Positions 7,020 to 22,202 of a stretch of 64,000 bases of DNA are shown here, piece after piece. The position numbers were made by a program, and so were the translations under genes. Source of the stretch: Steroidobacteraceae bacterium (GTDB taxonomy: Bacteria; Pseudomonadota; Gammaproteobacteria; Steroidobacterales; Steroidobacteraceae); the NCBI GenBank assembly GCA_045810105.1, contig JBJMWM010000026.1, forward strand, positions 27,808 through 91,807. Reading direction: 5' to 3'. Positions within the stretch are counted from its first letter, which is position 1; each line of letters begins with the position of its first letter. The notes under the pieces were generated by a model. That model was not told where the DNA came from. It made no database searches and was given only the letters and a program-made list of their open reading frames with translations.

Positions 7020-8071
7020 TGCAAAAGCCGGTCGAGGTCAACGGAAGTTACATGACCCATGGTCGAGATCCGAAACAAGCTCTGCGCCAGGTCCCCCTGT
7101 CCCGCATAGATCACAAAGCCTTGCGCCTTCAAGGCGTCATGTAGTTTTGTATAGCTCATGCCAGCTGGCAATTTATAAGATCGCAATACAACCGAGGACT
7201 GCTCGGGCGCGACGACGGGCTCGATCCCGAGCGTGGCCAGCCCGGTCCGAACCTGCTCAGCTAGTGCCGCATAGCGTTGGTAGCGAGCTGCGCGTCCGCC
7301 CTCATCTGCAAACTCGCGGAGCGCTTCGACGAGCGCGTAATAAGCCTGCACCGCTGGCGTGAAGGGCGTATTGCGTTGATCCTGCATGCGCGCCAGTCGG
7401 CCAAGATCGAGGTAATACGTACGGCTCGCCGCCTGCGGCAAGAGCGCACGCCGGACTACCACGAAGGAGGCGCCTGGCACCCCGTGCAGACATTTATTAG
7501 CGGTTGCAGCTACCGCACCCAGGCTGTCTTGCGCGAAATCGATGGGCTCCGCTCCGAAACTGCTCACCGCATCGACGAGTAGGCGCAAGCCTCGGGCCCG
7601 GCACAACTGCATCAAGGGCACAAGATCATTGAGCCGCCCGGTTGTGGTCTCGTGGTGAACGACGGCCACGTGGGTGAACTGCGCGTCCTGCTTCGCGCCA
7701 TCGAGTCGAGCCGCGATGGCATCGAGGTCCAAACCCTGCATCCAGGGAAAGATGACGCGCTCGTGCGCGATCCCATATTGCAAGCAGATCTGGGCTATCC
7801 GCTCGCCATAGACGCCATTCTCGAGGTTGAGCAGCCGGCCGCCGCTCGGAACCAGCGCAGCCGTCATGCTTTCCACCGCCGCAGTGCCGGAGCCGGTCAT
7901 GAGCACGGCAGTCCACAGGTTCGGATCCAGGTCGTACGTGGCGAGCAGCCGCTGGCGTGCCTCATCCTGTACAGCAAAGAATTCGCTTTCACGGTGACAC
8001 AGATCAGGCTGCAACAGGCTCTGGCGTACACGGCCACTGAGCGTGACAGGCCCGGGGTTGAGCAACAGCAT
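6998..8071 (-). CDS. 2-aminoethylphosphonate--pyruvate transaminase (class V aminotransferase, PhnW-like)
   Basis: N-terminus LLLNPGPVTLSGRVRQSL...LCHRESEF is typical of AEP transaminases. ATG 8071 shares one base with the ppd stop codon; TTG 8074 is an alternative start. Confidence 0.8.
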   Translation of the reverse strand: MLLLNPGPVTLSGRVRQSLLQPDLCHRESEFFAVQDEARQRLLATYDLDPNLWTAVLMTGSGTAAVESMTAALVPSGGRLLNLENGVYGERIAQICLQYGIAHERVIFPWMQGLDLDAIAARLDGAKQDAQFTHVAVVHHETTTGRLNDLVPLMQLCRARGLRLLVDAVSSFGAEPIDFAQDSLGAVAATANKCLHGVPGASFVVVRRALLPQAASRTYYLDLGRLARMQDQRNTPFTPAVQAYYALVEALREFADEGGRAARYQRYAALAEQVRTGLATLGIEPVVAPEQSSVVLRSYKLPAGMSYTKLHDALKAQGFVIYAGQGDLAQSLFRISTMGHVTSVDLDRLLQCFARQV

Positions 8072-9279
8072 CAAGGAACTCCGGCTAAAGAGCCGAAGTG
8101 TTGCATCAGACGTGTCTTTACGTCGACTGGAGTTACGGAAGGACGCGGCAGGCCGTCAGGTGTGCCCGCACGAGTCAGCAGGCGTGCAAACCTCGGCCCC
8201 CCGGTTGGTGGTGATTCCAGCCAGGCGCCGATTCGCGCTACATCGTCGGTTTCAAGCGAGGAAGCGTAGCCGCAGGCAGCTGCAATTTCTGCGAACGACA
8301 CGTGTGTCGAAACGGTCGCCTGACCGCCAGTCGAATCATGGACGCCGTTATCCAGCAGCAGGTGCTGAAGATTCGGTGGCCCATAAGCGCCCACCGTTGC
8401 GAATGCGCCCATGCGCATCAGAGCGGCTCCGTCGCCATCCAATGCAATCACACGCACGTCTGGCCGAGCCAGTGCGAGTCCCAGTGCCAATGGCACTACG
8501 CAACCCATCGATCCAACCATGTACAACTGGTTGGGCCGATCATCGATAGCGTAGAGCTCGCGACCGCAAAATCCCGTAGACGCAAGCACGGCCGTCGAGG
8601 CCACTGGCGTGCGCGCGATGACCTCCCGAAGCGCATCCTGCCGAGATGGGCGCGCACTATCGGGCAGCCTGAGAGGTTCCAGCACGACCCGTGCTGCCGG
8701 CGTGCTACCAGAGGGACTCGTCTGCGAACCAGAAGGCTTTCCGACCGCGCTGGCACCTGGTTTGAGGGCGTATGGCGCTACCGTGCCCTTCTGCATTACC
8801 AAGGCGTATGGGCGCCCTGTGTCGTCCATGTAGGCCGTGGCTCTGTCCAGCGCGGGACCGATGGCATCAATCTCGGCAGGAAACAGCTCCCACGGGATCT
8901 CCATGGTTTCGAGCATCTTGGGCGTGATCGGGCCCATGAGAGCGTGTTGGGGTTCATCAGGCACGCCGGGCTGGGCCCGCCAGGTGACGATCAGCAGTTG
9001 AGGCAGGCGGAAGGTCCAGGTAAGCGAAGTCAGCGGACTGACGGCATTACCCAGGCCGGAATTCTGCATCATCGCCACGCCACGCCGGCCGCCACCCGCC
9101 AACGCAACACCCGCAATCAGAGCGACCGCGTCTCCCTCATTCGCCATCGACACATACTTCAGCGACGGATCCTGCAGCACATAGTTGATGAAGGGCGTCA
9201 GATACGAGCATGGGACGCCGGCGTACCACTCGAAGCCCCGCTCACGCGCGGCTTCGACGAAATGCCGCGCTTCAATCAT
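8071..9279 (-). CDS. ppd: phosphonopyruvate decarboxylase (ThDP enzyme)
   Basis: The internal start [33 protein letters not shown] is the family N-terminus. ATG 9279 overlaps the pepM stop (ATGATTGA). A ThDP-binding GDGAALM motif is present. Confidence 0.85.
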
Positions 9280-11011
9280 GGGGCGCTGCGTCCGCCGCGC
9301 TGCCAAAGGGGGTTTGTGCGTGCGCGAAGTCCACCGCCTGGCGGAAATCCTCGAGATCGTTGACACCCCGCCAGTGACCATGGACATACAGCACTTCGAT
9401 CTGCGCTCCGTCCGCAATCAGCGCGTTCATCAACGCCGGCATGTCCAGCGTGTCAAAGTCAGGCCGCTCGCGCAGGCGCGCGAGCACCGCTTTCACCTTC
9501 AGCAGTCCCTCGCGGCTCACCTTGAGCAGGCCAATCCAACGGCCGTTGGCGGTCTCACCCGAATCGCTGCTTTGCGGCTGCTTGGCGCTGACCACCCGCT
9601 TCAACAACACGGGCGTGCCGAACAGCCCACGGTCATCCGCACGCGAGCTGTAGGCAAAGTCACGGACGGTGCGATCGCCCTCCGCGCTCGGCGAAGAGTC
9701 CACGACCACGGAGAAGTCCGCCTTACTCTCGACGAGAGCCCGCAACACATAGCTGCGGAACAACAGGTCGCCGTACGAAATCACCGTTTCAGATTCGAGC
9801 CCGTGCATGGCGCAGGCAAGCGACCCCAGCTCACCGGTCTCGGTGTAACGCTCGTTGACGACCAGTTTGATTCCCGCGGTGTCGATCGCATCGACCCGAT
9901 AGCCACCGACTACGGTAATGTCGTTGACATTCTCCTTCTTAAAGCCGTCCACGAGCCAGCGAAGCAGCGGCTTGCCTGCGATCGGCAACATGACTTTGGG
10001 CCGATCGGCCGTCATCGCATCCAGTCCACGGCCGCGGGTTGCGGCCAGCACCACTGCCGAGCGCGACGCTTCCGATGCGGACAGGTACAAGCGTTCGGCC
10101 GCGGAGTACTCATCGGCATCCTGTAATCGGAAGATCTCGTTGACCGAGGCCACGCGGTCTTCGACGTTCACGAGCGTTTCATTGGTGTGGATTTCCCTGG
10201 CCACGCTCTGCATTGCGGCGGTTGCCGCGCGCACCAGGTGATTTGCCCAGATCACCATGCTGATGCCGGCCTTGCGGAACACATCCGTAGGCGTGCTGTA
10301 GTATTTCGTCGGCACGATCACCAACGGCGCTCTGCCAGCCCACTCGCGCGCGAACGTCACGATCTCATCCGGCTTCGACAGCTTGCTGTGAATCAGGATG
10401 GCATCAGCGCCGGCGCGCCGGTACGCTTCGGCCCGCCGCAGAGCCTCGTCCATGCCCCAACCGGCAATTAACGCCTCGACGCGCGCGACGATGCAGAAGT
10501 TCGGATCGTTCTGCGTGTCCTTGCCAGCCGCAATTTTCCCCGCGAACTCTGCCATCTCTGCCAGGGGCTGGCGCTCACCATTCAGAAAGCTGTTGGTCTT
10601 GGGGAACTGCTTGTCTTCGATGCAGACACCGGCAATACCGCGCTGCTCGAGCTTGCGGACCAGGCGGCGCATGTTGTTGAAGTTCCCGTAGCCGGTATCA
10701 CCATCCAGCAGGATGGGCAGATCACTGGCATCGGCCATGAATTCCAACATGTCCACGACCTGGGTCCAGCTCGCTTCGTTGTTGTCGCGCACGCCGAACT
10801 GCGCCGAAATGGATAGCCCCGAGCCCCAGATTCCCTTGAAGCCCGCTTCGCGCACGATGCGCGCGGACAGGCCGTTGTGCGCCTCCATCAGGAACTCGAG
10901 CTGCTCGCTCAACAGCATCTGCCGTAATCGTTGGCTGCGTGTCCGCAGGACCCCCTCGTTGGCAGCTGAGTGGAGCTCGCGGGTGGCGGATGATCCCATT
11001 GAAGCATTCAT
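9272..11011 (-). CDS. pepM: phosphoenolpyruvate mutase fused to a C-terminal nucleotidyltransferase domain
   Basis: The PepM-diagnostic EDK-x5-NS motif is present as [10 protein letters not shown]. The C-terminal ~250 aa ([11 protein letters not shown]...[12 protein letters not shown]) is an NTP-transferase fold. The start shows an ATGA overlap with the upstream gene. Confidence 0.9.
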
Positions 11012-11775
11012 GGCTGCGATCCTGGCAACGGTGGAAGTTTGGGCAGCACCGTGCGTGCCGCCCGGGAAACATCATTCGGAAAATCGATCTCGATCCAGGG
11101 CAACCCGGTGACATCGGCAATGTCGATGATCTGGCTATGCTCGAGCAGCAAGTCGCGAACGGCCTCCTCATGTGGCATGTTGGCGCGGCCGCGCTCGACA
11201 TAGCCGGCGACGAGCGTCGCGAGCCGGCGTGCGCCCGCGGGGTCGAACCGGAAAAAACCGACCGACTCGCCAATGGTGTCATATTGCAAGCCGGGTGCGA
11301 CCTGTTTACGCAACTCAACCGGCACGCCATCGCGCACGCACACCTTGACCGGCTCATCACCAGGTTCGAATTCGCGGTCGATGAGGATGCGGTTGACGGG
11401 CTTCCGCCCGGCTACCAGCGCTGTCATGATTCCCTCGTGGTACAGCACATCAGCGTCCATGAGCAGCACATCGCCGCCGCGGGTCATGGCCTGCGCGACT
11501 GTGTGAACCGTGAGGACACTTCCGAGCTCGAAGCCCGGGTTCAACACAACCTCAGGCCGCGGCGTCCAGCGCAGGCGATCGAGCTCAGTCTCGACCAGCT
11601 CGTGCCGGAATCCCAAGGCCAGCACGACCTCCTCGACGCCGGCTTGCTTCAAAAGCAACAGGTGCCGCTCGAGCAGCGTCCGCCCGTCGAATTCCAACAG
11701 GCACTTGGGCAGTTGCTGATCATCCGACTGTTGCAGACGCATTCCACGGCCCGCGGCAAGAATGATGGCGCGCAT
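11008..11775 (-). CDS. LicC/PntC-like nucleotidyltransferase (candidate phosphonate cytidylyltransferase)
   Basis: [14 protein letters not shown] glycine-rich NTase motif. A strong AAGGAG Shine-Dalgarno lies upstream of ATG 11775. Confidence 0.8.
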
Positions 11776-11797: not shown

Positions 11798-12784
11798 TTA
11801 TATGGCGAGGCGGCGACGCCAGCCTCGTTCGGACAGGTGCAGGTACAGCAATCCGGGTAGCCCCAGCAGAACCTCGCGCGCCCGCTTCGCCAGCGACAAG
11901 GCGAGCGCAGTCTCGGGCCGCAGTCCTACCAACGGCGCCAGAAGCAGATAACCACCCTCCTGCACGCCCAGGGATCCCGGGATGGCAAAGCCTGCCGCGC
12001 GAATCGCCTGGCCGAGGCTTTCCAACAGCAGCGCATCGCTCCAAGTTACGGGAAAGCGCAACAGCAGCAGGATCAAGTAGACTTCCGCAGTACCGATCAG
12101 CCAGCCGATGAGGCTCAGCAAGAAGCTGGCGGCAACCCGACCCGTGCGGCCGTAGGCATCCTGGACGGCCGAATCGATCGCATCCGCCTGGGTCATGATC
12201 TGCGACCAGTCCCGTTTACCGCCGATGCGTGCGATCGCGCGCATCAGCTTCCCAAACAGCCCGCGCCGCTGCATCAGGTAAAAGCCGGTCAGACAGAATG
12301 CCAGGACGCCGCTGGACAGCAGCAACGCCGTGCGCACCGAGTGTTCGGAGCTCTGGCTGGCGTGGGCACCCAGCAACGCCATGCCCAGCAGCGCAAAAAT
12401 AATCTGCGCAAAAGTCTGAAGGGTCGTACTGACAGTGACGCCAGCGGCAGCATCGCGCATCGACATACCGCGTTGCGCAAGATAACGCACCATCATCACG
12501 GGTCCACCGATGGGCCCCGCGGGCAGAAAACTGTTGGCAGACTCCCCTACCCAGCGCGCGAACAACGTATCACGCAGGGTGCTGCGCACTTTGGTCGTGT
12601 CGAACATCACCCTTATGGAGGCGGCGTCCAGGGCCAAAGGCACGAGGTGCAGCAGAGCGACCAGCGGCAGTCCCCATCCGGCAACGGCCAATGTGGCAAA
12701 CACTGCGGTGAAGCCCTGCGAGATCAGCACGCCGGCGAAGAGCAGCACGCCCGCCGAGAGCAGCCAGATCGCCGCCCGGGTCAT
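11798..12784 (-). CDS. UPF0104 / lysyl-PG-synthase-TM-like (flippase-like) integral membrane protein
   Basis: About 8 TM helices. The internal ATG 12784 forms an ATGA overlap with the stop of the oxygenase gene. The family also contains the hopanoid-associated HpnL. Confidence 0.7.
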   Translation of the reverse strand: MTRAAIWLLSAGVLLFAGVLISQGFTAVFATLAVAGWGLPLVALLHLVPLALDAASIRVMFDTTKVRSTLRDTLFARWVGESANSFLPAGPIGGPVMMVRYLAQRGMSMRDAAAGVTVSTTLQTFAQIIFALLGMALLGAHASQSSEHSVRTALLLSSGVLAFCLTGFYLMQRRGLFGKLMRAIARIGGKRDWSQIMTQADAIDSAVQDAYGRTGRVAASFLLSLIGWLIGTAEVYLILLLLRFPVTWSDALLLESLGQAIRAAGFAIPGSLGVQEGGYLLLAPLVGLRPETALALSLAKRAREVLLGLPGLLYLHLSERGWRRRLAI

Positions 12785-13491
12785 GGGGATCCCTTGCGGC
12801 CGCGGAAGACTTGCCGCAGGCCAAAGTAGGCGACGGCGTCCTTGACATTGGAGATCAGCCGCCACCAGGGGTGCATGCTCTGATCGGTTACATACTCGAA
12901 GGTCAGCGACACGCGTTTTTCGTTCTCACCCAGGGGCGTAATGCGATGGCGTAGTTTGTCACCATCGAAAAACACCAGGCCACCGGGTGGAATCTGCACT
13001 GAGCCGGGTACCACGGCCACGCCACTCTCACGCGTGTGTAACTCGTAGTCGAGGCGGCATGACGATTGGTCGAGCACACCGAGTAGCAGCGTGTAGCGGC
13101 GTCCCGCGTAGTAGGAAGTATCGTAGTGCCAACCGATGTGATCGCCCGGACGCGTGTAGAAATACAGGGCGTAGGCATGCGGATCGTCAGGAGGCGAGAG
13201 CTGCAGGCGTTCCCCGGCCAGCTGCTCCAAAACACTGATCAACACCGGCGATCGATACAACTCGCCTATGAACGGCGCCAGCTGGTCGATCGTGTGGCGG
13301 CTGACACTGCCACCCTGCTTGTGGCCCGGCAGGTAGTTGCGGTTCATTGCGGGCTCAACCGCGGCAACCGCGCGGACGAGTTGCGCCGTGACTTCGGGGG
13401 TGAGGAACTCGGGCAGATACAGGAATGCGCCCTGCCGCACAAACTCGCTGCGCAGGGAGTGCGTGTCGAGCTTGTCCACGCGCGCTTCCAT
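12781..13491 (-). CDS. 2-oxoglutarate/Fe(II)-dependent oxygenase
   Basis: HxD...H facial triad candidates (GWHYDTS and KLRHRITP) plus RVSLTF for 2OG binding. The ORF track extends to 14007, but that part overlaps the CDP-alcohol transferase gene. The ATG 13491 start gives MEARVDKL.... Confidence 0.65.
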   Translation of the reverse strand: MEARVDKLDTHSLRSEFVRQGAFLYLPEFLTPEVTAQLVRAVAAVEPAMNRNYLPGHKQGGSVSRHTIDQLAPFIGELYRSPVLISVLEQLAGERLQLSPPDDPHAYALYFYTRPGDHIGWHYDTSYYAGRRYTLLLGVLDQSSCRLDYELHTRESGVAVVPGSVQIPPGGLVFFDGDKLRHRITPLGENEKRVSLTFEYVTDQSMHPWWRLISNVKDAVAYFGLRQVFRGRKGSP

Positions 13492-13508
13492 CACTCGATG
13501 GACGCTGA

Positions 13509-14189
13509 TCAGGTCGCCCCCGAGGTCCGCCGGGCTTGGACAGGCTGCAGACGATTCAGCACGCGCCGGTAGTCGATCACCACCCAGACAGCGAACAAGG
13601 GAGCGCCTATGGAGGCCGCTATCAGGAACGGTGTCAGACCATTGAAGATCGTCACGAGCGGTAGAAGGTACAGCACGTCTTCGGTTTCGAACCCGGCCAG
13701 CGAGACCTGTTGGCTCGCAGCCTTGCCGGCCAGCCCCTCGATCCGCATGCGCAGGAAGAAGATCAACGCGACCGCGCTGCCGGCCACCAGGCCGAGCACG
13801 GCCGGCGGCATCTGCAGGACGGAGCCAACTCTCGCGGCCACGCCGACACCCATCGCCAGGAACAGCAGGATCGTAACCACGGCATCGCTCGCCAGGTCGT
13901 AGATGTGACCGATACGGCTCGTCTTGCCGCTGATTCGGGCCAGCTCGCCATCGGTATGATCCAGAAAATTTGACAGAACCAGCAGCAGGGCGCCGATGTT
14001 CGTCCATCCGTAGGTACCGGGCAGGAACGCAGCCGCAGCGGCGAGGCCAAAGGCGAGGCGCACGGTCGTCAGATGATTCGGGGTCGCCCGGCTGTCCTTC
14101 AGCGGTGTAACCAGGCGACGCGCCAGCCGTGCGTCCCAGGGCCGTTGCGTCACGGGGACAGAATGAGAAAGTAGCGGTGACTCAGGCAT
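13509..14189 (-). CDS. CDP-alcohol phosphatidyltransferase family protein
   Basis: The signature D-x2-DG-x2-AR-x8-G-x3-D-x3-D is seen as DHTDGELARISGKTSRIGHIYDLASD. The protein is multi-TM. Confidence 0.85.
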   Translation of the reverse strand: MPESPLLSHSVPVTQRPWDARLARRLVTPLKDSRATPNHLTTVRLAFGLAAAAAFLPGTYGWTNIGALLLVLSNFLDHTDGELARISGKTSRIGHIYDLASDAVVTILLFLAMGVGVAARVGSVLQMPPAVLGLVAGSAVALIFFLRMRIEGLAGKAASQQVSLAGFETEDVLYLLPLVTIFNGLTPFLIAASIGAPLFAVWVVIDYRRVLNRLQPVQARRTSGAT

Positions 14190-14269
14190 GATCGACCTAT
14201 TTTACGCTCGTTTTCTGGGGCATCCAACGGAAATGCCTCCCTCAAAAGGCGGACCTGGCGGGCGTGGTT

Positions 14270-15256
14270 TTAAGAGAGCGAACCTTGCTCGCGCAGCCAG
14301 GCAATGGCATCGCGCAACGCTTGCGCGGGTGGGCGCCAGTGGTATCCGAGCTCACGCATTGCCTTGTCACTCGAAAAGAACATGCGCTTACGCGACATGC
14401 GTACGGCTTCAAGTGTGATTCGCCCGGGTCGCCCGGTTACCCGCGCCACGGCTTCAGCTACATAGGCGATGGGGAACACGACTGCCGTTGGCAGGCGAAT
14501 ACGCGGCGGTTTCCTCCCCACGAGCTGCGCAATCTCAAACAGGATTTCCCGCAGCGTCATGTCCTCGCCGCCCAGGATGTACCGCTCGCCGGGCCGGCCG
14601 CGGTGGAAAGCAAGCAGATGGCCGGCGGCAACATCGTCCACATGTACGATGTTGAGTCCAGTATCGACGTAGGCAGGCATTCGCCCGGCAGCCGCGTCGA
14701 GGATCACCTGGCCCGTTGGCGTTGGTTTGACGTCACCCGGCCCTATTGGTGTCGATGGGTTCACGATCACCACGGGCAGTCCCGGCAGAACCGTTTCCCG
14801 CACCATCTGCTCGGCAAGAAATTTCGAGCGCTTGTAGTGACCGATCATGTCGGCTACGCCCACCGGCGTATCTTCGTTGCCGGGCGAGCCGTCAGCAGGA
14901 ATGCCAACGGTCGCGACACTGCTGGTGTAGACAACACGCCGCACGCCGGCTTGCCTGGCCGCTTCGAGAATATTGCGGGTCCCCTCGACATTCGTTTGGT
15001 ATAGCTGGCTCGGATCCGGCGCGCCCAGCCTGTAATCAGCCGCGACGTGAAACAGCGCCTCGCATCCTGACAGCGCGCGCTCCAGTGATGGTCTGTCAGC
15101 CAGGTTACCCTCGCTGACTTCCACGGGCAGAGCCTGAATGTTGCGCCGGTCCGACCCCGGGCGAGCAAGCGCCCTGACCTGCCATCCTTCCTGTACGAGC
15201 GCACGCGCAACGGCTGCCCCGACAAACCCAGTGGCGCCCGTCACTAAAGCTCTCAT
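14270..15256 (-). CDS. hpnA: hopanoid-associated NAD-dependent sugar epimerase/dehydratase family protein
   Basis: MRALVTGATGFVGAAV Rossmann motif. ATGA overlap with the hpnG stop. Sits in a hopanoid gene context. Confidence 0.8.
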   Translation of the reverse strand: MRALVTGATGFVGAAVARALVQEGWQVRALARPGSDRRNIQALPVEVSEGNLADRPSLERALSGCEALFHVAADYRLGAPDPSQLYQTNVEGTRNILEAARQAGVRRVVYTSSVATVGIPADGSPGNEDTPVGVADMIGHYKRSKFLAEQMVRETVLPGLPVVIVNPSTPIGPGDVKPTPTGQVILDAAAGRMPAYVDTGLNIVHVDDVAAGHLLAFHRGRPGERYILGGEDMTLREILFEIAQLVGRKPPRIRLPTAVVFPIAYVAEAVARVTGRPGRITLEAVRMSRKRMFFSSDKAMRELGYHWRPPAQALRDAIAWLREQGSLS

Positions 15257-16068
15257 GGCAAGCGGGTGTCGGCTGCCGTGGAAAATTCGTAGCGCGTCAA
15301 CGAGCCCGTGCGTGCAATTGCAGCCAGAGAGCGATTGGCCGCTCTGTAGCGACGGGCCAACCGGATCAGTGGAGCCAACTCATTGGGCGCGAGCGCCAGC
15401 GCGCCGATCAAACGCCAGACCTGCAGATGTCCCTCACTATCCGCGGCCGCCGTCACCGCACGCGGCAGGACATCTGCCGCGCAATCGACGATCACGCGCA
15501 CGGCGATGAACGGTAGTTGGTGTTTTGTGGCAACTTCGCCCACCGCCAGGCTTTCCATATCCACGGCCGCGGCACCGGTGGCCTGGAACAATCCAGCCTT
15601 GTCCGCGACCGTACCGATGGCGCGGGAGGTTGTCAGCAGCTTACCGCTACGGACGGGTGCAAGCGCCGCGACCGCACGGCTCAGCCGCTCCCGCCAGGCT
15701 GTGGCAGTGTTTAAGCGCTGTCCGTCCGACCCGATCACCTCTGTCGGCAGAAGAATGGCGCCGGCGCTCAGAGTTGGATCGAGCCCTCCAGCCATGCCCC
15801 AGCTCGCCAGCGCGCTGGCACCAGCGTCGACGAGGGCGCGGGACCCGGCGGCAGCGGCCGCGTTGCCCATCCCGGTTACGGCAACGAGCGTGCCGTCGGC
15901 AAGCGTCGCCAGCGCAGGCTTGTTCAAACGTACGGTTGGCCCCAGGTGCCGCGCTTCCGAGGCCAGCGCGCATACGATCCCAACTACGACGTTCAGTGCC
16001 AATGCGCGGCTCCGGGCCGCACCAGGTTGCGATAGGCGGACAGTGCCCAGAGCGGAAAGTACGCGCAA
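15253..16068 (-). CDS. hpnG: hopanoid-associated phosphorylase / adenosylhopane nucleosidase
   Basis: PNP/UDP-1 family features (VGIVCALASEA..., GMGNAAAA). The start is uncertain: ATG 16068 overlaps shc by 76 nt, whereas TTG 16002 overlaps it by only 10 nt. Confidence 0.7.
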   Translation of the reverse strand: MRVLSALGTVRLSQPGAARSRALALNVVVGIVCALASEARHLGPTVRLNKPALATLADGTLVAVTGMGNAAAAAGSRALVDAGASALASWGMAGGLDPTLSAGAILLPTEVIGSDGQRLNTATAWRERLSRAVAALAPVRSGKLLTTSRAIGTVADKAGLFQATGAAAVDMESLAVGEVATKHQLPFIAVRVIVDCAADVLPRAVTAAADSEGHLQVWRLIGALALAPNELAPLIRLARRYRAANRSLAAIARTGSLTRYEFSTAADTRLP

Positions 16069-18005
16069 TAGCCGTGATACTTCAGATAAAACACTCTCGG
16101 GAAACCCGGCGCGGTGAAATGCGGATCAGTCCACAGCCCATCCGCCTGTTGGGCACGCAGCAGGTATTCGATGCCGCAGCGCACGGCAACCGAGCTCGCC
16201 TGCCCGCTGGCCATCAGGGCCAGCAGTGCCCAAGCGGTTTGGTGCGGGGTGCTCTGCGTCTGCTCGTTCAGGTGCTGCTTGCAGTGGTATCCGTCGTTGC
16301 TCTCGCCCCAGCCACCGTCAGGATTCTGCCTGCCGACGAGCCAGGTCACGGCGCGGCGGACCGCCTCGTCATCCGGACCGATGCCAGCCAGCCCAAACGC
16401 GGACAACACCGACCACGTTCCGTAGATGTAGTTGGTACCCCAACGGCCGAACCACGGACCTTCAGCCATCTGCTCCTTGCGCAGAAAGTCAATCGCGCGC
16501 CGCAGCGGTTCCCGGTCCTGCGGCCGGGCGACCAGCGACATCGCCGCCACGACGCGCGCCGTCACATCACTCGTCGGCGGATCCAACAGCGCGCCGTGAT
16601 CCGCGAACGGAATCAGGTTGAGGTTGTAGTGTGTGTTGTCGACATCGAATGCCGCAAACCCCCCATTGCTGCTCTGCATTCCCGCGAGCCAGTCCAGCGC
16701 CCGCTCGATGCTGGCCGAATAGCGGGCGCGGTCGTTGGCGCGGTGCATCGCCCAGACGATGACGGCCGTATCGTCCAGGTCGGGGTAGTGGCCGTTGGCA
16801 AATTGGAACGGCCAGCCACCGCTCTTGAGATTCGGGCGGCTGACCTGCCAGTCGCCCGGCTCTTCCACCAGCTGTTTGCTCTTGAGCCAGCCGAGCGCGG
16901 CATCGGTCGCGACAGCCGCCGCTGTACCACCAGCTTCCTGAAGTGCAAGGCCCGCGAGCGCGGTGTCCCAGACTGGGGATACGCACGGCTGACAGTAGGC
17001 ACTGTTGTCGTGCACCACGAGCAATTTCTTCAGCGCCCGTTTGGCCGTGACGACCCGCGGGTCATCGCTGGGATAACCGAGCAATATCATCGCTTCCAGA
17101 GCGTTGACCATGGCGGGGAAGATTGCGCCCAGGCCATCTTCGCCGTTCAGGCGCGCCAGGAACCAGGCTTCGGCCCGGCGGGTCGCGGCCGCGCGCATGC
17201 GCTTCGGAATCAAAACATCCAACCGCCGGAAGACCCGATCGACCAGCAGGAATGCCGAGGCGAGCAGCCGCTCACGCCGGCTCGAGCGTTCCGGTCCCAA
17301 GCGAAAATACGTGTGCTCGCTCTCGGGAGGCGTCACGAACAGCTCGCGGACATCCACATTCCGCGGATTTTTGGCCCGTGGTTTGTAGGTGCACAGTATG
17401 AACAGCGGCACCATCACCGTGCGCGACCAGTACGACACCTTGTCGAGATGAAATGGAAACCAGCGCGGCATCAGCATGATTTCGACCGGCATGTACGGCA
17501 CGGCGCGCCACGGCACCTGGCCGAAGAGCGCGAGCGCGATCCGGGTGAACACGTTGGCCCGCGCAGCGCCGCCCCGCTCGAGAATGGCTTTGCGTGCCCG
17601 CACCATGTGCGGCGCGTCCGTACTGTCACCGGCAAGCTTCAAGGCGTAGTACGCCTTGACGGTGCAACTGATGTCGAGCTCGCCTCCGTAGTACAGCGGC
17701 CAACCACCGTGCTCGGCCTGGTGAGCGCGCAAATACACCGCGATCTTCGCTTCCAGCGACGAATCGATTTCGTCGAGGTAATGCATCATCATGATGTATT
17801 CGGCCGGAATGGTGCAGTCCGCTTCCAACTCGAACACCCAATAGCCGGACTCGCCCTGGCGCTCGAGCAGCCCATCGCGGGCGGCGTCGATGCCGCGGTT
17901 CAGTGACAGGTGCCCGGCGTGGCGCTCGAGCTTCTGCGCCAGCTGCTGCTGCCGGGTGTTATGTTTGTTGGTGGCGGCCTCTACGGCGCGGGAATTACGA
18001 CTCAA
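15993..18005 (-). CDS. shc: squalene-hopene cyclase
   Basis: 670 aa. Catalytic DxDDTA is seen as DLDDTAV, with multiple QW repeats. The TTG start forms a TTGA overlap with the sqs stop. Confidence 0.95.
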   Translation of the reverse strand: MSRNSRAVEAATNKHNTRQQQLAQKLERHAGHLSLNRGIDAARDGLLERQGESGYWVFELEADCTIPAEYIMMMHYLDEIDSSLEAKIAVYLRAHQAEHGGWPLYYGGELDISCTVKAYYALKLAGDSTDAPHMVRARKAILERGGAARANVFTRIALALFGQVPWRAVPYMPVEIMLMPRWFPFHLDKVSYWSRTVMVPLFILCTYKPRAKNPRNVDVRELFVTPPESEHTYFRLGPERSSRRERLLASAFLLVDRVFRRLDVLIPKRMRAAATRRAEAWFLARLNGEDGLGAIFPAMVNALEAMILLGYPSDDPRVVTAKRALKKLLVVHDNSAYCQPCVSPVWDTALAGLALQEAGGTAAAVATDAALGWLKSKQLVEEPGDWQVSRPNLKSGGWPFQFANGHYPDLDDTAVIVWAMHRANDRARYSASIERALDWLAGMQSSNGGFAAFDVDNTHYNLNLIPFADHGALLDPPTSDVTARVVAAMSLVARPQDREPLRRAIDFLRKEQMAEGPWFGRWGTNYIYGTWSVLSAFGLAGIGPDDEAVRRAVTWLVGRQNPDGGWGESNDGYHCKQHLNEQTQSTPHQTAWALLALMASGQASSVAVRCGIEYLLRAQQADGLWTDPHFTAPGFPRVFYLKYHGYCAYFPLWALSAYRNLVRPGAAHWH

Positions 18006-19174
18006 AGCGCGGATCTCCCTTCGGAGCGGCGTGCTCCCCGTTCGTGCGGTACCGACCGCACGGCATGGCTGTACTCAGGCGCGGGAGCGGCCGCGGTTAG
18101 TGCCGGCCTGGATGCGCGGCGCACGGTTCCGGCAGGCGCGAGCGGTACCCCGCGGGCGGCAATGTCGAACAGGCGCTTGAGCATCCAGTTGTTACGTACG
18201 GTCATGTTGGTTGAGATTCGGGTCATGGCCACGGCCGACCGCGGGATCTTCACCTGGCGGCCGCTGGTGAAGCCGGGCGTCGCGGCAATCTTGCGCAGGG
18301 TGAGGATTGCCATGCCGATGGCCCAGAGGCAGAAACGGCGGATGCCCGCTTCCGTACCCGGGATGAGCAATGTGAAGGACAGCGCATTGCGCAGGTGCGC
18401 GTGGGCCACCCCGACCAACTCGCGCATGGCCGCATCGAAGCGTCCATCGGCGCGTGCCGGCGTGAGCTGGCCCAGATCGATGCCATGGCGGGTGAAGACT
18501 TCCTGCGGCAGCCAGCAAGCTCCCCGGCCGCGGTCCTCCCACACATCCTTCAGGATGTTGGTCATCTGCAGCCCCTGGGCGAATGACACATCGAGCTCGT
18601 GCAGGCCGGCGCGTTGCTGGGCGATCTGCGGTGAGTATCCGCAGAACAGCTCCGTGAGCATCTGGCCCACGACCCCGGCGACGTAGTAACAGTAGTCGTC
18701 CATGTCCGTCTGGCGCGGCACTCCCCGCAGGCTGGCAGTCTGCTGGAACTGGTGCATGCCGCCGCACATCACCTCGACGCAGCGTTGAATCGCGAACTGT
18801 TGTTGTGCCTCCAGCCGGTTGGTCACGCGGACCACCCGCTCCATGTTGGCCACCAGGTCGGCTTCGGCCTTCAGAGTCTGATTGGAGAGCTGCGGACCTA
18901 AGTCCTGGGCCAGGGCAGCGGCCGGTTCTTTGCCATACAGCATTGCCACGAAGCGCTGCAGGAAATGCAGGCTGGCGGCCGGCGTCAGCGCGGGTTCGTC
19001 TTCGATGGTATCGGCAATCCGACACAGCAGGTAGGCGTTGGTGACGGAAGTGCGCAATGCCGGGGGCAGCTGCGGGATGGTCAACGCGAAGGTGCGCGAC
19101 ACGTCCGGCAGGATATGCTCCTGGTAAGCCTCATCCGACAGGCTGGAATCCGTCTGTACAGCGTCTGGCGACAT
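18002..19174 (-). CDS. sqs: squalene synthase (farnesyl-diphosphate farnesyltransferase, single-enzyme type)
   Basis: 390 aa. VSRTFALTIPQLPPALR...YLLCRIADTIEDE is the SQS_PSY family signature. Confidence 0.85.
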   Translation of the reverse strand: MSPDAVQTDSSLSDEAYQEHILPDVSRTFALTIPQLPPALRTSVTNAYLLCRIADTIEDEPALTPAASLHFLQRFVAMLYGKEPAAALAQDLGPQLSNQTLKAEADLVANMERVVRVTNRLEAQQQFAIQRCVEVMCGGMHQFQQTASLRGVPRQTDMDDYCYYVAGVVGQMLTELFCGYSPQIAQQRAGLHELDVSFAQGLQMTNILKDVWEDRGRGACWLPQEVFTRHGIDLGQLTPARADGRFDAAMRELVGVAHAHLRNALSFTLLIPGTEAGIRRFCLWAIGMAILTLRKIAATPGFTSGRQVKIPRSAVAMTRISTNMTVRNNWMLKRLFDIAARGVPLAPAGTVRRASRPALTAAAPAPEYSHAVRSVPHERGARRSEGRSAL

Positions 19175-19445
19175 CGCTCGAACAAAACCTCCGACTTCGA
19201 CTGACCCACGCGAGACGCGCGGATGCGGCTCGAAATGCCCCAGCGCATACGCACAGCGCGTATGCGCACCCTCAGGGGCGCGACTTTACCATGCAATCAA
19301 TCAGTTAAGGTCTAGCCACTTAGAGGCAAGGGGCGTACCAACGTTCGCGGCCGGGCCACCCTCTTCCGGCGCGAAGCGCCGCTACTCTTCGCGGGTCGCC
19401 CCTGGGCGATCCCGCCAAGGCGTGGGGCGCAGCCCCTGAAAAGGG

Positions 19446-20390
19446 TCAATAATGCCGCGAAAGCAGCCAGTCAGCCAAAGAGCGCAATAGGTCGGCACGT
19501 GAGCCCAGCGGGGCGAGCGCATCGATTGCCTGGGCATGCAGCAGCCGCACCCGCTCCTGGGATGCCTCGATGCCGATGACTGAAGGGTGGGTCGGCTTCG
19601 AGCGCTCGCTATCCGCGCCAGTCGCCTTACCCAAGGTGGACACGTCGCCGAGCACGTCCAACAAGTCATCCTGGATCTGAAACGCCAGCCCTATGGGACT
19701 CGCAAAACCGGCGAGCGCCTCCTGCAACCGAGAATCGAGGGACGGCGCACAGGCGGCGGCCATCATCAGGCTGACGCGGATGAGCGCGCCGGTCTTACGC
19801 GAATGCATCTCTTCCACTTGTGTCAGGTCCAGTTGCTTGCCCTGGACCGCCAGGTCTATGGCCTGACCACCCGCCATGCCGAACGAGCCGCTCGCTTCCG
19901 CCAGCAACTCCACGAGCCGCAGGCGAATGGCCGGCGATGCCGGCAGGGCCGGATCCCGTGTCAACACGTGGAACGCCAGCGTCTGCAGGGCATCGCCTAC
20001 CAGAACCGCCGTCGCCTCATCGAAAGCTTTGTGACAGGTTGGACGCCCGCGACGAAGGTCGTCATTGTCCATTGCCGGTAAGTCATCGTGCACGAGTGAG
20101 TAGACATGTATGAGTTCGATAGCGCAGGCGGCGCCTTCGACCTCCTCCTCGGAACGGCCTATCGCACGAGCTGCAGCGAACAGCAACGCCGGCCGGATAC
20201 GCTTGCCACCGCCAAGTACGGTGTAGCGCATCGCCTCATGTAGACGGGCCGGCACGACCTCCGGGCCCGGAAGCCGCGCGGCTAATGCCGACTCCATGCG
20301 CGCCTGCCACGATTCCAGCTGGGCGCGAAACGCTTCGCGCCCGGCCGAATCGCTCACAGGGGCCTGTCGAGCCCCGACAGCGGCGCTCAC
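19446..20390 (-). CDS. ispA: farnesyl-diphosphate synthase (polyprenyl synthetase)
   Basis: Both Asp-rich motifs are present (LVHDDLPAMDNDDLRRG and FQIQDDLLD). GTG 20390 has a GGAAGG Shine-Dalgarno 6 nt upstream. The longer ORF to 20471 would overlap hpnH. Confidence 0.85.
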   Translation of the reverse strand: MSAAVGARQAPVSDSAGREAFRAQLESWQARMESALAARLPGPEVVPARLHEAMRYTVLGGGKRIRPALLFAAARAIGRSEEEVEGAACAIELIHVYSLVHDDLPAMDNDDLRRGRPTCHKAFDEATAVLVGDALQTLAFHVLTRDPALPASPAIRLRLVELLAEASGSFGMAGGQAIDLAVQGKQLDLTQVEEMHSRKTGALIRVSLMMAAACAPSLDSRLQEALAGFASPIGLAFQIQDDLLDVLGDVSTLGKATGADSERSKPTHPSVIGIEASQERVRLLHAQAIDALAPLGSRADLLRSLADWLLSRHY

Positions 20391-20424
20391 GCCCACCCTT
20401 CCCGGAGGCCAGTATTTGCCAGGA

Positions 20425-21609
20425 TCATTGCTGTCTGGAGGGATGCCCGCCTTCGGGCTCACGGTTGGCACGCTTCACATCGGCAACGGCAACGGTGGCC
20501 ACCGTGCCACCGCGCGCAGGCCGGTCGCCATCGCTATAAAGAATGGGCAGATCGGCAGCCATCTGACCCGACACCCGGGCTCCCAGGACCGCCGTCTTGA
20601 GCAATTTCAGCGGATGACTGAATGCGTCATCCACGGCGGTACCCTCGAATCCACAGTGAGCCATGCAGTTGTCGCAGGCAGGGTTGCGGCCCACACCATA
20701 CTTCTCCCAATCGGTGTCTTCCATGAGGGACTTGAAAGTCGGGGCATAGCCTTCGTCGGTCAAGAGGTAACAGGGCCGCTGCCAACCGAACAAGTTGTAG
20801 GTAGGCGTGCTCCATGGGGTGCACTGGTAAGCCTGGTTGCCGGCCAAAAAGTCCAGAAACAGCGCCGAGTGGTTGAAGGACCAGCGGGTGCGCGCTCTAC
20901 CTTTCGGCGAGCTTGCACTGCGGCCGCGCTTGAAGATTTCCCTGAACAGCCGCTTGCTCGCGCTACGGCCGAGGAATACATCCTGGCGCGGCGCATGGTG
21001 ATAGCTGTAGCCGGGCGAGACCATGATTCCTTCAATGCCGAGCGCCATCGCTTCATCAAAGAAAGCGGCCACCTCGTCAGGGTTCTCACCGCTGAAGAGT
21101 GTGCAGTTGATGGTCACGCGGAAGCCCTTGCTGCGCGCCAGACGGATCGCAGCCACCGCCTTGTCGAACACGCCTTCCTGGCAGACGGACTCGTCGTGGC
21201 GCTCGCGGCTGCCATCGAGGTGAATCGAGAACGTGAGGTATGGCGAAGGGGTGTATTCGTCGATGTGCTTGGGCAACAGGATTGCGTTGGTGCACAGGTA
21301 GACGAATTTCTTGCGCGCGACGATGCCCGCGACGATCTGCGGCATCTCCTTGTGGATCAGCGGCTCGCCGCCTGGGATGGACACCATGGGCGTGTCACAT
21401 TCATCCACTGCACGCAGTGCGTCTTCGACGCTCACCCGCTTCTGCAGGGTTTCCTTGGGGTAGTCAATCTTGCCGCACCCGGCACAGGCGAGATTGCACT
21501 GAAATAACGGCTCGAGCATCAATACCAGCGGATAACGCTTGATGCCGCGCAGCTTCTTGCCGGCGATGTATCGACCGACCTTGTATGCCTGTAAAAGCGG
21601 AACGCCCAA
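20425..21609 (-). CDS. hpnH: adenosyl-hopene transferase, radical SAM
   Basis: [20 protein letters not shown] contains the CxxxCxxC cluster in the HpnH-typical N-terminal context. TTG start with a GGAGAG Shine-Dalgarno. Confidence 0.9.
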
Positions 21610-21621
21610 CTTGTAACTCTC

Positions 21622-22188
21622 CTATTGCTGAGCAGAAAGCACGGCGCGGTGATCCCGCCAGATGCGCTCCCACTCCATCACAAACCACGGTGTGAACCGC
21701 CCTGCCTCGCTGCCGGCGAGCTGCGCCTGCAGGTCCTCGGGACTGATCCAACGCCACGCGAGAATCTCGCGTGGATCGATCCTGACAGGATCTGAGCAGC
21801 GGCCGACGAACACGGAGCACAGCTCCTGCTCGGCGCCCGCCGCATCGAACTGCGCCTGGTACTGAAACTTGAACAGGAAGTGCAGCGGACAGCGCAATCC
21901 CAGCTCTTCATACAGCCGCCGGTGGATCGCAGTCTCCATGCTCTCCGCGCGCCGCGGATGGCTGCAGCAGCTGTTGGACCAGTACAGCGGCCACAGCCGC
22001 TTTGCGGCTGCACGCTGTTGCAGCAGCAACTCGCCCGCAGCGTTGAAGATGAGCAACGAGAACGCGCGATGCAGAACGCCGCGGCCCTGATGACACTGCG
22101 CCTTGTCGAGGTGCCCGACTTCCCGGTCGGCTTCGTCCACCAGGATCAGCGACTCGGAATCGGCCGCGCTGCCCCGAACTTCATCCAT
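21622..22188 (-). CDS. idi: isopentenyl-diphosphate delta-isomerase, type 1 (Nudix)
   Basis: [11 protein letters not shown]...[25 protein letters not shown]...RRLYEELG matches type 1 IDI, including the catalytic Cys and Glu regions. Start is ATG 22188; TTG 22194 is an alternative. Confidence 0.9.
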
Positions 22189-22202
22189 CGTCAAGACAAC
22201 TC

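Follow-up and report, generated by a model that had tools for sequence, protein, structure and literature searches.

A seven-gene phosphonate core, described as 'Group 1 phosphonolipid' or 'Burkholderiales_CDP-OH' and representing 36% of the RefSeq Ppm neighbourhoods analysed, is predicted to make a phosphonolipid, and no phosphonolipid has been characterised from any member (Li & Horsman 2022, PMC8942020). It comprises Ppm-NTase, Ppd, AEPT, a 2-oxoglutarate (2OG) oxygenase, a PntC-like nucleotidyltransferase (NTase), a cytidine diphosphate (CDP)-alcohol phosphotransferase (CDP-OH) and a PF03706 protein (Yu et al. 2013; Li & Horsman 2022, PMC8942020). Here we analysed a 64-kb stretch of DNA (62% G+C) of a soil Steroidobacteraceae bacterium (assembly GCA_045810105.1, contig JBJMWM010000026.1), hereafter called the window, in which profile matches identify a phosphonate block as this core, gene for gene and in the order known from Burkholderia, Caballeronia, Cupriavidus and Pandoraea (52-78% identity). 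In contrast to the described family, the core of the window stands head-to-tail behind the hopanoid genes sqs-shc-hpnG-hpnA, with a coupled Omp85-like gene coming after it. With a probability of roughly 0.45, we read the stretch as a set of hopanoid genes behind which lies the module for their head group. The published description of the family is silent on the identity of its membrane protein with HpnL, and on the recurrence of the NTase, CDP-OH and HpnL genes in hpn clusters. Both of these points, the latter with or without the phosphoenolpyruvate (PEP) mutase gene pepM, and the interleaving of 2-aminoethylphosphonate (AEP) genes with hpn genes in several proteobacterial classes, appear to be new.

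Brief remarks on a phosphonate-terpene connection, under the terms 'phosphonate-terpene' or 'phosphonoterpene', exist for Nitrosococcus, Acetobacteraceae and Pandoraea (PMC7285500, PMC8776678, PMC8942020, PMC5987411); they came from antiSMASH calls or neighbourhood maps, and a product was identified in none. The initial annotation of the window, made from the DNA alone, knew of no described phosphonate-bearing hopanoid, and searches of the accessible literature indeed yielded none; the idea itself is not new. In a 2026 preprint on hopanoid microsynteny, a CDP-alcohol phosphatidyltransferase is counted 1409 times within 20 open reading frames (ORFs) of 3662 shc loci, compared with 1398 for hpnG, 1333 for hpnN and 379 for hpnL (Table S8; counts not de-replicated by strain), and PEP mutase and Ppd correlate with SHC in GTDB Gammaproteobacteria with r = 0.43 and r = 0.38, respectively (Table S7). 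The main text of the preprint discusses neither the counts nor the correlations, although both agree with a connection between the phosphonate genes and hopanoids. The functions of HpnL and HpnA are both given as unknown in hopanoid surveys of 2025-26, and no enzyme is assigned to the reduction of ribosylhopane to bacteriohopanetetrol (BHT).

Genes were assigned by profile searches of the window against Pfam and NCBIfam/TIGRFAM, applying curated cutoffs where given. The minus strand carries every gene, first the hopanoid block and then the phosphonate block, in the 5' to 3' order idi-hpnH-ispA, sqs-shc-hpnG-hpnA, an 80-bp gap, CDP-OH, 2OG, HpnL, NTase, PepM-NTase, Ppd, AEPT and Omp85-like. These searches bore out the gene content and order of the initial annotation, with corrections to some ORFs and starts and one to the extent of the block: the phosphonate unit, which had been taken to begin at 11798, extends to 6998 at the end of the AEPT gene, and probably to 5709 at the end of the Omp85-family gene. 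The unit opens with the CDP-OH transferase gene (13509-14189; Pfam PF01066, 46.9 bits, threshold 22), whose product belongs to a distinct subfamily and which has an alternative start at GTG 14153. It is followed by genes for a HalD/BesD-like 2OG/Fe(II) oxygenase (12781-13491; Pfam HalD, 1.6e-11; BesD, 6nie), HpnL (11798-12784; UPF0104/LPG_synthase_TM), a stand-alone cytidylyltransferase of the PntC/LicC/IPCT type (11008-11775; Pfam NTP_transf_3), PEP mutase (PepM) fused to a cytidylyltransferase domain (9272-11011; TIGR02320, 400 bits), the phosphonopyruvate decarboxylase Ppd (8071-9279, start ATG 9279; Pfam TPP_enzyme_N and TPP_enzyme_C) and a class V AEP-pyruvate transaminase, AEPT (6998-8074; Pfam Aminotran_5). 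These genes are tightly coupled, with ATGA junctions between 2OG and HpnL and between NTase and PepM, a TGATG junction between Ppd and AEPT, and the junction ATGATTGA between PepM and Ppd, where the Ppd start overlaps the pepM stop.

The UPF0104 membrane protein within the block had been placed in the family of the hopanoid-associated HpnL. The match proved stronger than that claim, as the protein scores as HpnL itself (TIGR03476, 311.7 bits, cutoff 195.65), covering model positions 2-318 of 318, and its gene lies 1.4 kb from hpnA. All HpnL proteins checked, including those from non-hpn contexts, reached 316-421 bits on the same model. No PDB match was obtained for HpnL at the sequence level. 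Its AlphaFold model (pLDDT 89) gave MprF structures (7duw, 7f47 and 9goe) as the top three Foldseek PDB matches, with a probability of 1.00 and a TMq of ∼0.5, a fold similarity that supports a lipid-flippase-like role. In Nitrosococcus oceani and Methylobacterium bullatum, HpnL was found alone beside hpnN/hpnM.

The enzymes of the phosphonate block were further examined for motifs and solved relatives. PepM carries the EDKxxxxxNS motif at residue 132 and its NTP_transf_3 domain at residues 319-437. The best solved relative of the free NTase was the PntC-AEPT fusion of T. denticola (6pd1; 3e-7, ∼25% identity over 246 residues); the protein aligned over its full length with T. denticola PntC, was also close to LicC and to the IPCT half of IPCT/DIPPS, and passed no curated model. 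The CDP-OH transferase shows the motif D(x)2DG(x)2AR(x)7-12G(x)3D(x)3D at residue 77 (DhtDGelARisgktsriGhiyDlasD), and its subfamily is marked by the signature PWDARLAR, DHxDGELAR and GFExEDxLY. The closest solved structures, all of them distant hits, were AF2299, CHPT1 and IPCT-DIPPS. AF2299, CHPT1 and DIPPS use soluble CDP-alcohol donors. The proximity of the free NTase to PntC, LicC and IPCT, and that of the transferase to AF2299, CHPT1 and DIPPS, were counted in favour of the proposed head-group module, in which AEP would be activated with cytidine monophosphate (CMP-AEP). The 2OG oxygenase possesses an HxD triad of the hydroxylase type (HYD), and a halogenase reading of its HalD/BesD match was rejected on this ground. 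On the hopanoid side, the closest solved structures of HpnA were 3wj7, deposited as a 'putative oxidoreductase', and 2x4g, a nucleoside diphosphate-sugar epimerase, followed by cinnamoyl-CoA and dihydroflavonol reductases, and its NCBIfam neighbours were the lipid-acting SdmB and OleD.

In order to compare the locus with its closest relatives, a genome collection was scanned by HpnL alignment, which gave 80 loci at 52-78% identity, and a gene matrix was compiled by tblastn; the comparisons cover the loci with their flanking sequence (∼10 kb). The 80 loci span Steroidobacteraceae and other gammaproteobacterial metagenome-assembled genomes (MAGs), Burkholderia, Paraburkholderia, Caballeronia, Cupriavidus, Pandoraea and Ralstonia. 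CDP-OH, 2OG (colinear in 74 loci), HpnL and NTase were colinear in all loci with flanking sequence, and PepM-NTase, Ppd and AEPT came next in about half of them (AEPT colinear in 40), all seven core genes being present in the order of the window in ∼40 Burkholderiaceae and MAG loci. Adjacency to hpn genes with the gene order of the window was seen in loci L001, L005 and L010, and in divergent orientation in L020. In Ralstonia pickettii, hpnH, ispH, hpnA and hpnB were located 2-6 kb upstream of the cassette, and the cassettes of Pandoraea and Pararobbsia are probably hpn-adjacent as well, judging from an HpnN-like MMPL gene and ispH just downstream. As most of the 80 loci are not hpn-adjacent, strict synteny among the closest relatives was rejected as a basis of the link, which emerged only with more distant relatives of HpnL and of the CDP-OH transferase.

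These distant relatives decide the comparison. Salinisphaera aquimarina carries on one strand SQS-SHC, hpnG, hpnN, CDP-OH, hpnA, hpnT (DUF2147), 2OG, hpnL, NTase, pepM-NTase, ppd, aept, hpnH, GT2 and hpnM, an interleaved order that is shared by two metagenome contigs. In Roseomonas marmotae, a member of the Alphaproteobacteria, the AEP genes lie between hpnS/hpnN and ispH-hpnH-hpnG-shc-hpnEDC-hpnB-hpnA, with hpnL placed between ppd and aept. In Mycetohabitans rhizoxinica, only dxs stands between the seven-gene core and a downstream series of hpnN, hpnM, ispH, hpnH, hpnA, hpnB, shc and hpnD. The hpn genes also abut the cassette in the metagenome loci L109, L112, L159, L143, L144 and L168. A metagenome scan based on similarity to the CDP-OH subfamily alone, of which 39 loci of at least 6 kb were kept, yielded hpn genes adjoining the transferase gene in 21 loci, six of these also with pepM and in three further gene orders. 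The bare seven-gene core accounted for 8 of the 39 loci, the arrangement HpnL-sulfotransferase-ABC-2-CDP-OH without hpn genes for six, and four were left unclassified. As 21 of 39 loci fetched only by CDP-OH similarity are hpn-linked, the adjacency is more than chance. In total, about nine different gene orders were found in which pepM together with the CDP-OH subfamily adjoins an hpn cluster or lies within it, across the Alpha-, Beta- and Gammaproteobacteria. The co-occurrence of pepM and a CDP-alcohol transferase next to shc/hpnH in other genomes, which had been suggested as a check on the window, was thereby established in many lineages; the proposed functional phosphonate-hopanoid link passes this comparative test, whereas the closest relatives do not share the synteny.

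Complete hpn clusters lacking pepM (L084, L087, L088, L091 and others) contained hpnN, NTase, CDP-OH, hpnA, hpnL, ispH and hpnH. Their NTase and CDP-OH proteins were 36-48% identical to those of the window, compared with 57-68% for hpnA and hpnH and 34-44% for HpnL, and the former values, being in proportion to the latter, make NTase and CDP-OH look orthologous. The hpnA gene was located immediately downstream of CDP-OH in 16 loci, the window having the reversed order. Taken on gene content, the NTase/CDP-OH/HpnL trio appears to be a module of hopanoid clusters, to which pepM-ppd-aept would be an optional supply add-on.

Variations of the cassette were also recorded. About 30 Paraburkholderia loci (including L007) carried CDP-OH, 2OG, HpnL and NTase but none of pepM, ppd and aept in the surrounding 10 kb, flanked by genes for PhoX, a porin, a major facilitator superfamily transporter, gamma-glutamyltranspeptidase (GGT), PPK2 and a PHO4-type phosphate transporter, which hints at phosphate-linked regulation or at AEP supplied from elsewhere in the genome. 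Another wiring of the family to AEP was seen in L085 (5764-10966; 8.8-Mb genome), where pepM-NTase, ppd and aept directly precede an HpnL-family gene, with a GT2 glycosyltransferase gene adjoining and no CDP-OH within 10 kb. In the pepM-less cluster of L088 (hpnN, NTase, CDP-OH, hpnA, hpnL, CDP-OH2, ispH, hpnH), a second CDP-alcohol phosphatidyltransferase gene directly followed hpnL (12662-13261). A PhyH-family 2OG oxygenase, which may replace the HalD-like hydroxylase, was located at the edge of or inside NTase/CDP-OH-bearing hpn clusters, both with and without pepM (L084, 3453-4253; L087, 20307 to the end; L109, L112 and L159). Clusters of the Salinisphaera type carried SQS and SHC as one fused protein of 1001-1016 aa (L082, 404-3409; L089, 3576-6614; L090, 3534-6584), and two of them a 350-aa protein with no Pfam hit between hpnT (DUF2147) and 2OG (L089, 12262-13314; L090, 12191-13243), which was absent from the S. 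aquimarina version. A conserved operon of HpnL, Sulfotransfer_3, an ABC-2 permease and CDP-OH, often beside PhoD and with no hpn gene, was found in L083, L086, L097, L113, L118, L127, L134 and L141; some of these loci are marine (TARA) and one belongs to an 8.1-Mb genome. Its gene content points to a lipid with a sulfated head group, for which the same transferase/flippase pair would be responsible.

The gap between hpnA and CDP-OH, estimated at about 80 bp in the initial annotation, is exactly 80 bp long (14190-14269), and the weak GGCAT...ATGCC repeat without a T-run described therein is present at 14237-14219. A terminator scan detected a single weak site in the gap, at 14250-14235 (six pairs including G-T, three of them G-C); terminator-like sites in the region numbered 16, not above the 12.7 ± 3.0 found in shuffled sequences, and RNA folding of the gap was no better than that of shuffled sequence (z = +1.15). 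The sequence upstream of CDP-OH was aligned from 10 gammaproteobacterial MAG loci with differing upstream genes. The alignment revealed a conserved element, ATTTCAyTTTGATGACA-N16-18-GCGTAAAAT, which resembles a −35/−10 pair and is present regardless of the upstream gene; it was noted in the window and in L001, L002, L003, L005, L008, L010, L031, L068 and L069. Each locus has a single copy, in every case in front of the CDP-OH gene. In the window the copy consists of a −35 TTGGAT (14227-14222), a 17-nt spacer and a −10 TAAAAT (14204-14199). The −10 ends only 9 nt before the CDP-OH ATG, and transcription is predicted to start near 14192, which would leave the mRNA with almost no leader unless the start codon is GTG 14153. 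A palindrome of the type TGTCAT-N4-ATGACA overlies the −35 and is degenerate in L001 and in the window (14237-14219), and by its sequence the 'hairpin' noted earlier is best described as a degenerate copy of it.

The element is probably a promoter plus an operator for some regulator, and on its conservation the cassette very probably has its own promoter. Read-through from hpnA had been considered plausible and, in so far as no convincing terminator was detected, it is; the conserved promoter-like element, however, means that read-through is not the basis of the link, and it was dropped as the chief argument, co-transcription being neither needed nor shown. The coupling to the hpn genes would thus be one of co-location, perhaps with partial read-through, and not obligate co-transcription. 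An operator shared by the hpn genes and the cassette was also rejected, as the 17-mer was present only upstream of CDP-OH and not of sqs or hpnH. The same applied to a riboswitch or other RNA in the 80-bp gap or in the 271-bp gap upstream of sqs, since Rfam matched nothing anywhere in the window.

Family assignment shows idi, the farnesyl-diphosphate (FPP) synthase gene, sqs and shc as a predicted set for making diploptene, HpnH and HpnG as predicted to extend the hopanoid side chain, and PepM, Ppd and the transaminase as predicted to make AEP; we infer every step past AEP synthesis. In the simplest scheme to employ all the parts, the HalD-like 2OG enzyme would hydroxylate AEP, probably at C1, and the PntC-like cytidylyltransferases, one fused to PepM and one free, would form CMP-(hydroxy)AEP. 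The CDP-OH transferase would then take the phosphonyl head group off CMP and attach it to a hydroxyl group on an extended hopanoid, either BHT or ribosylhopane, the acceptor possibly being provided by the adjacent carbonyl-reductase-like HpnA. The zwitterionic product would be moved by HpnL to the outer leaflet of the inner membrane, and in the lineage of the window the Omp85-like barrel may assist at the outer membrane. That the phosphonate block and the hopanoids are functionally linked is likely. A covalent (hydroxy)AEP-bearing hopanoid, flipped by HpnL, would be the most likely product, with a chance that we place slightly below even. Tentatively, the scheme may be generalized to a hopanoid head-group phosphotransfer system formed by NTase, CDP-OH and HpnL, with hidden phospho- or phosphono-bacteriohopanepolyols; the Group 1 products would then be (hydroxy)aminoethylphosphonyl hopanoids, with HpnL as the flippase and HpnA as a possible supplier of the acceptor.

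Several observations weigh against a hopanoid as the acceptor. Some 70 of the 80 closest genome loci are free of hpn genes over 10 kb; they belong to Burkholderia, Paraburkholderia, Caballeronia, Cupriavidus and several sister gammaproteobacterial MAGs labelled Steroidobacteraceae, Gammaproteobacteria or Pseudomonadota. Adjacency is thus missing from most Burkholderiaceae and from sister MAGs such as L008, L031, L069 and L074. HpnL members away from hpn genes, in Burkholderia- and sulfotransferase-type loci, score equally on the HpnL model, and since both subfamilies, HpnL and CDP-OH, are found as well in the company of a sulfotransferase and an ABC-2 permease where the neighbourhood contains no hpn gene, the pair is not exclusive to hopanoid loci. 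The gap holds a promoter-like element of its own. The best NCBIfam matches of the CDP-OH transferase were archaetidylinositol-phosphate (AIP) and phosphatidylinositol-phosphate (PIP) synthases, and characterised small six-helix CDP-OH transferases mostly take a lipid CDP donor and a soluble acceptor. The model does not need as many as two cytidylyltransferases, the accessible literature holds no characterised phosphorus- or phosphonate-bearing hopanoid, and guilt by association cannot identify the acceptor lipid. In a Kennedy-type scheme, CMP-(hydroxy)AEP would be transferred to diacylglycerol, another glycerolipid or a sphingoid and the product flipped by HpnL, the proximity of hpn genes reflecting co-regulation, co-export or functional pairing. 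Precedent exists in AEP glycerolipids, ceramide-AEP and bacterial CDP-choline:diacylglycerol phosphotransferases. Such a lipid would agree with the remoteness of most Burkholderiaceae loci from hpn genes, with the promoter-like element of the cassette and with the occurrence of the HpnL and CDP-OH subfamilies without hpn neighbours, and it corresponds to the published prediction for the seven-gene core, but Burkholderia, in which the core is prevalent, has yielded no phosphonolipid of this kind (PMC8942020). We consider it a serious, though less likely, rival; it leaves unexplained the interleaving with hpnN, hpnA, hpnT and hpnH in several unrelated orders, the pepM-less NTase/CDP-OH/hpnA/hpnL operons that are integral to hpn clusters, and the lone HpnL by hpnN/hpnM.

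The match to AIP and PIP synthases, enzymes that pair a lipid-CDP donor with a phosphorylated alcohol as the acceptor, would accord with a reversed polarity, in which CDP-diacylglycerol is the donor and the hydroxyl of 1-hydroxy-AEP the acceptor, giving phosphatidyl-(1-hydroxy-2-aminoethylphosphonate). Phosphatidylglycerol-phosphate and PIP synthases likewise combine a CDP-lipid donor with glycerol-3-phosphate and inositol-1-phosphate, respectively. This polarity would also explain the hydroxylase within the conserved four-gene cassette, but it is improbable, leaving both PntC-like cytidylyltransferases without a role and the hopanoid linkage unexplained, while the hpn-embedded versions keep NTase and CDP-OH yet lack both the HalD-like hydroxylase and pepM. 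The adjacency of NTase, CDP-OH and HpnA in many hpn clusters would suit an activated hopanoid, in which HpnG forms phosphoribosylhopane, the NTase converts it to CDP-ribosylhopane, HpnA modifies the pentose and CDP-OH couples the product to an alcohol such as 1-hydroxy-AEP. HpnG belongs to a phosphorylase family with a sugar-1-phosphate as the expected product, whereas phosphoribohopane has never been observed (PMC13459092). HpnA is annotated as a nucleotide-sugar epimerase type; its closest solved relatives, except the second-best 2x4g, are nevertheless carbonyl reductases of hydrophobic substrates, and the NTase has its greatest similarity to PntC, LicC and IPCT, enzymes with small phosph(on)ates as substrates, making this route highly improbable. 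As for two lipid operons that are mere chance neighbours in the lineage of the window, the sister MAGs and most Burkholderiaceae without adjacency and the independent promoter-like element would fit; adjacency in about nine gene orders and three proteobacterial classes, including interleaved ones, the hpn linkage of 21 of the 39 loci recovered by CDP-OH similarity, and a membrane protein that scores as HpnL render an absence of any functional link very improbable indeed.

The hopanoid block of the window, also on the minus strand, begins with idi, encoding a type 1 isopentenyl-diphosphate isomerase of the Nudix family (21622-22194; Pfam NUDIX, 2e-19), whose position is conserved in L001, L005 and L010. 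It continues with hpnH, the adenosylhopane synthase gene with radical SAM and DUF3463 domains (20425-21609; TIGR03470, 529.7 bits, cutoff 225), and an ispA-like FPP synthase gene with an uncertain start codon (19446-20471; Pfam polyprenyl_synt, 1e-57). A 271-bp intergenic gap (19175-19445) separates the latter from sqs. Within this gap, ∼90 nt upstream of the sqs start and on the minus strand, a strong 10-bp inverted repeat, GCGCATACGC GCTGT GCGTATGCGC, was noted, which had no Rfam match. The sqs gene encodes a single-enzyme squalene synthase (18002-19174; Pfam SQS_PSY, 8e-58) whose top NCBIfam match was squal_synth TIGR01559, under the cutoff of that model, and shc a squalene-hopene cyclase (15993-18005) with both cyclase domains (SQHop_cyclase_N, PF13249, 423 bits, 1e-127; SQHop_cyclase_C, PF13243, 438 bits, 1e-131). 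They are followed by hpnG, a hopanoid-associated nucleoside phosphorylase gene with a borderline score (15253-16002; TIGR03468, 188.3 bits, cutoff 187.1), the ORF of which reaches 16068 and the likely start of which is TTG 16002, and by hpnA, a hopanoid-associated short-chain dehydrogenase/reductase gene (14270-15256; TIGR03466, 503 bits, cutoff 368). The translationally coupled sqs-shc-hpnG-hpnA block of the initial annotation could be read directly from the sequence, with a TTGA junction between sqs and shc, a short overlap between shc and hpnG, provided that TTG 16002 is the start, and an ATGA junction between hpnG and hpnA. The window lacks hpnI, hpnJ, hpnK, hpnN and hpnM, and tblastn with HpnN, HpnM, HpnT, MlaA and HpnB queries gave no match in the 64 kb, such genes often being located elsewhere in the genome.

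At the opposite end of the locus, the gene for an Omp85-family outer-membrane barrel with a signal peptide (5709-7019, minus strand; Pfam Omp85; NF047779, 118 bits) has a 22-nt overlap with the AEPT stop; it is translationally coupled and probably closes the operon. It was found behind AEPT in 15 loci, which belong only to Steroidobacteraceae and other gammaproteobacterial MAGs and in no case to Burkholderiaceae, and the barrel could serve the lipid product as a partner at the outer membrane. A 408-aa ORF at 12781-14007 was discarded as an artefact, its first 172 codons overlapping CDP-OH in another frame and its homologs starting at MEARV; the corrected starts are ATG 13491 for the 2OG oxygenase, ATG 12784 for HpnL and ATG 9279 for Ppd.

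If the link is chemical, it would address the never isolated product of the most abundant bacterial phosphonate cluster family, one prevalent among pathogens of the genus Burkholderia, as well as the function of HpnL and possibly that of HpnA, and the existence of phosphorus-bearing hopanoids as a new biomarker class. A new route would then connect the phosphonate (reduced phosphorus) cycle with the membrane lipids of bacteria in soils and the sea. Should the product be a separate lipid, the recurrent interleaving still shows a phosphonolipid coordinated with hopanoid synthesis and export. The cassette is carried by cultured organisms, namely Mycetohabitans rhizoxinica, Roseomonas marmotae, Salinisphaera aquimarina and Burkholderia.

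The proposed route shares parts with several known systems. The transmembrane (flippase) domain of MprF provided the top three fold matches of HpnL and has the Pfam family LPG_synthase_TM in common with it, but HpnL has no synthase domain, is only 14-17% identical, and would act on a substrate other than lysyl-phosphatidylglycerol. The IPCT/DIPPS of hyperthermophiles likewise pairs an activating with a transferring enzyme, and the free NTase (60 bits) and CDP-OH (34 bits) match its two halves; in the window these are separate polypeptides with scores far under the curated cutoff of 580 bits, and their context is one of phosphonates and hopanoids and not of compatible-solute synthesis. The logic of Kennedy-type transfer by LicC/PntC and CHPT1/CEPT1, in which cytidine triphosphate and an aminoalkyl-phosph(on)ate give a CMP conjugate that reacts with a lipid hydroxyl, would be the same, whereas the transferase of the window is minimal (∼200-226 aa) and resembles AF2299, DIPPS and AIP synthase more closely than it does the eukaryotic enzymes with their 10 helices, and the proposed acceptor is a hopanoid polyol in place of diacylglycerol. 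Finally, the pathways for the head groups of composite bacteriohopanepolyols, that is, BHT-glucosamine and the cyclitol ether by HpnI/HpnK/HpnJ and aminotriol by HpnO, also depend on accessory genes of hpn clusters and equip the C35 side chain with a polar group once HpnH and HpnG have acted, with export presumably by HpnN/HpnM. The route proposed here would differ from these in that the polar group arrives by phosphonyl transfer from a CMP-activated donor and not by glycosylation or transamination.

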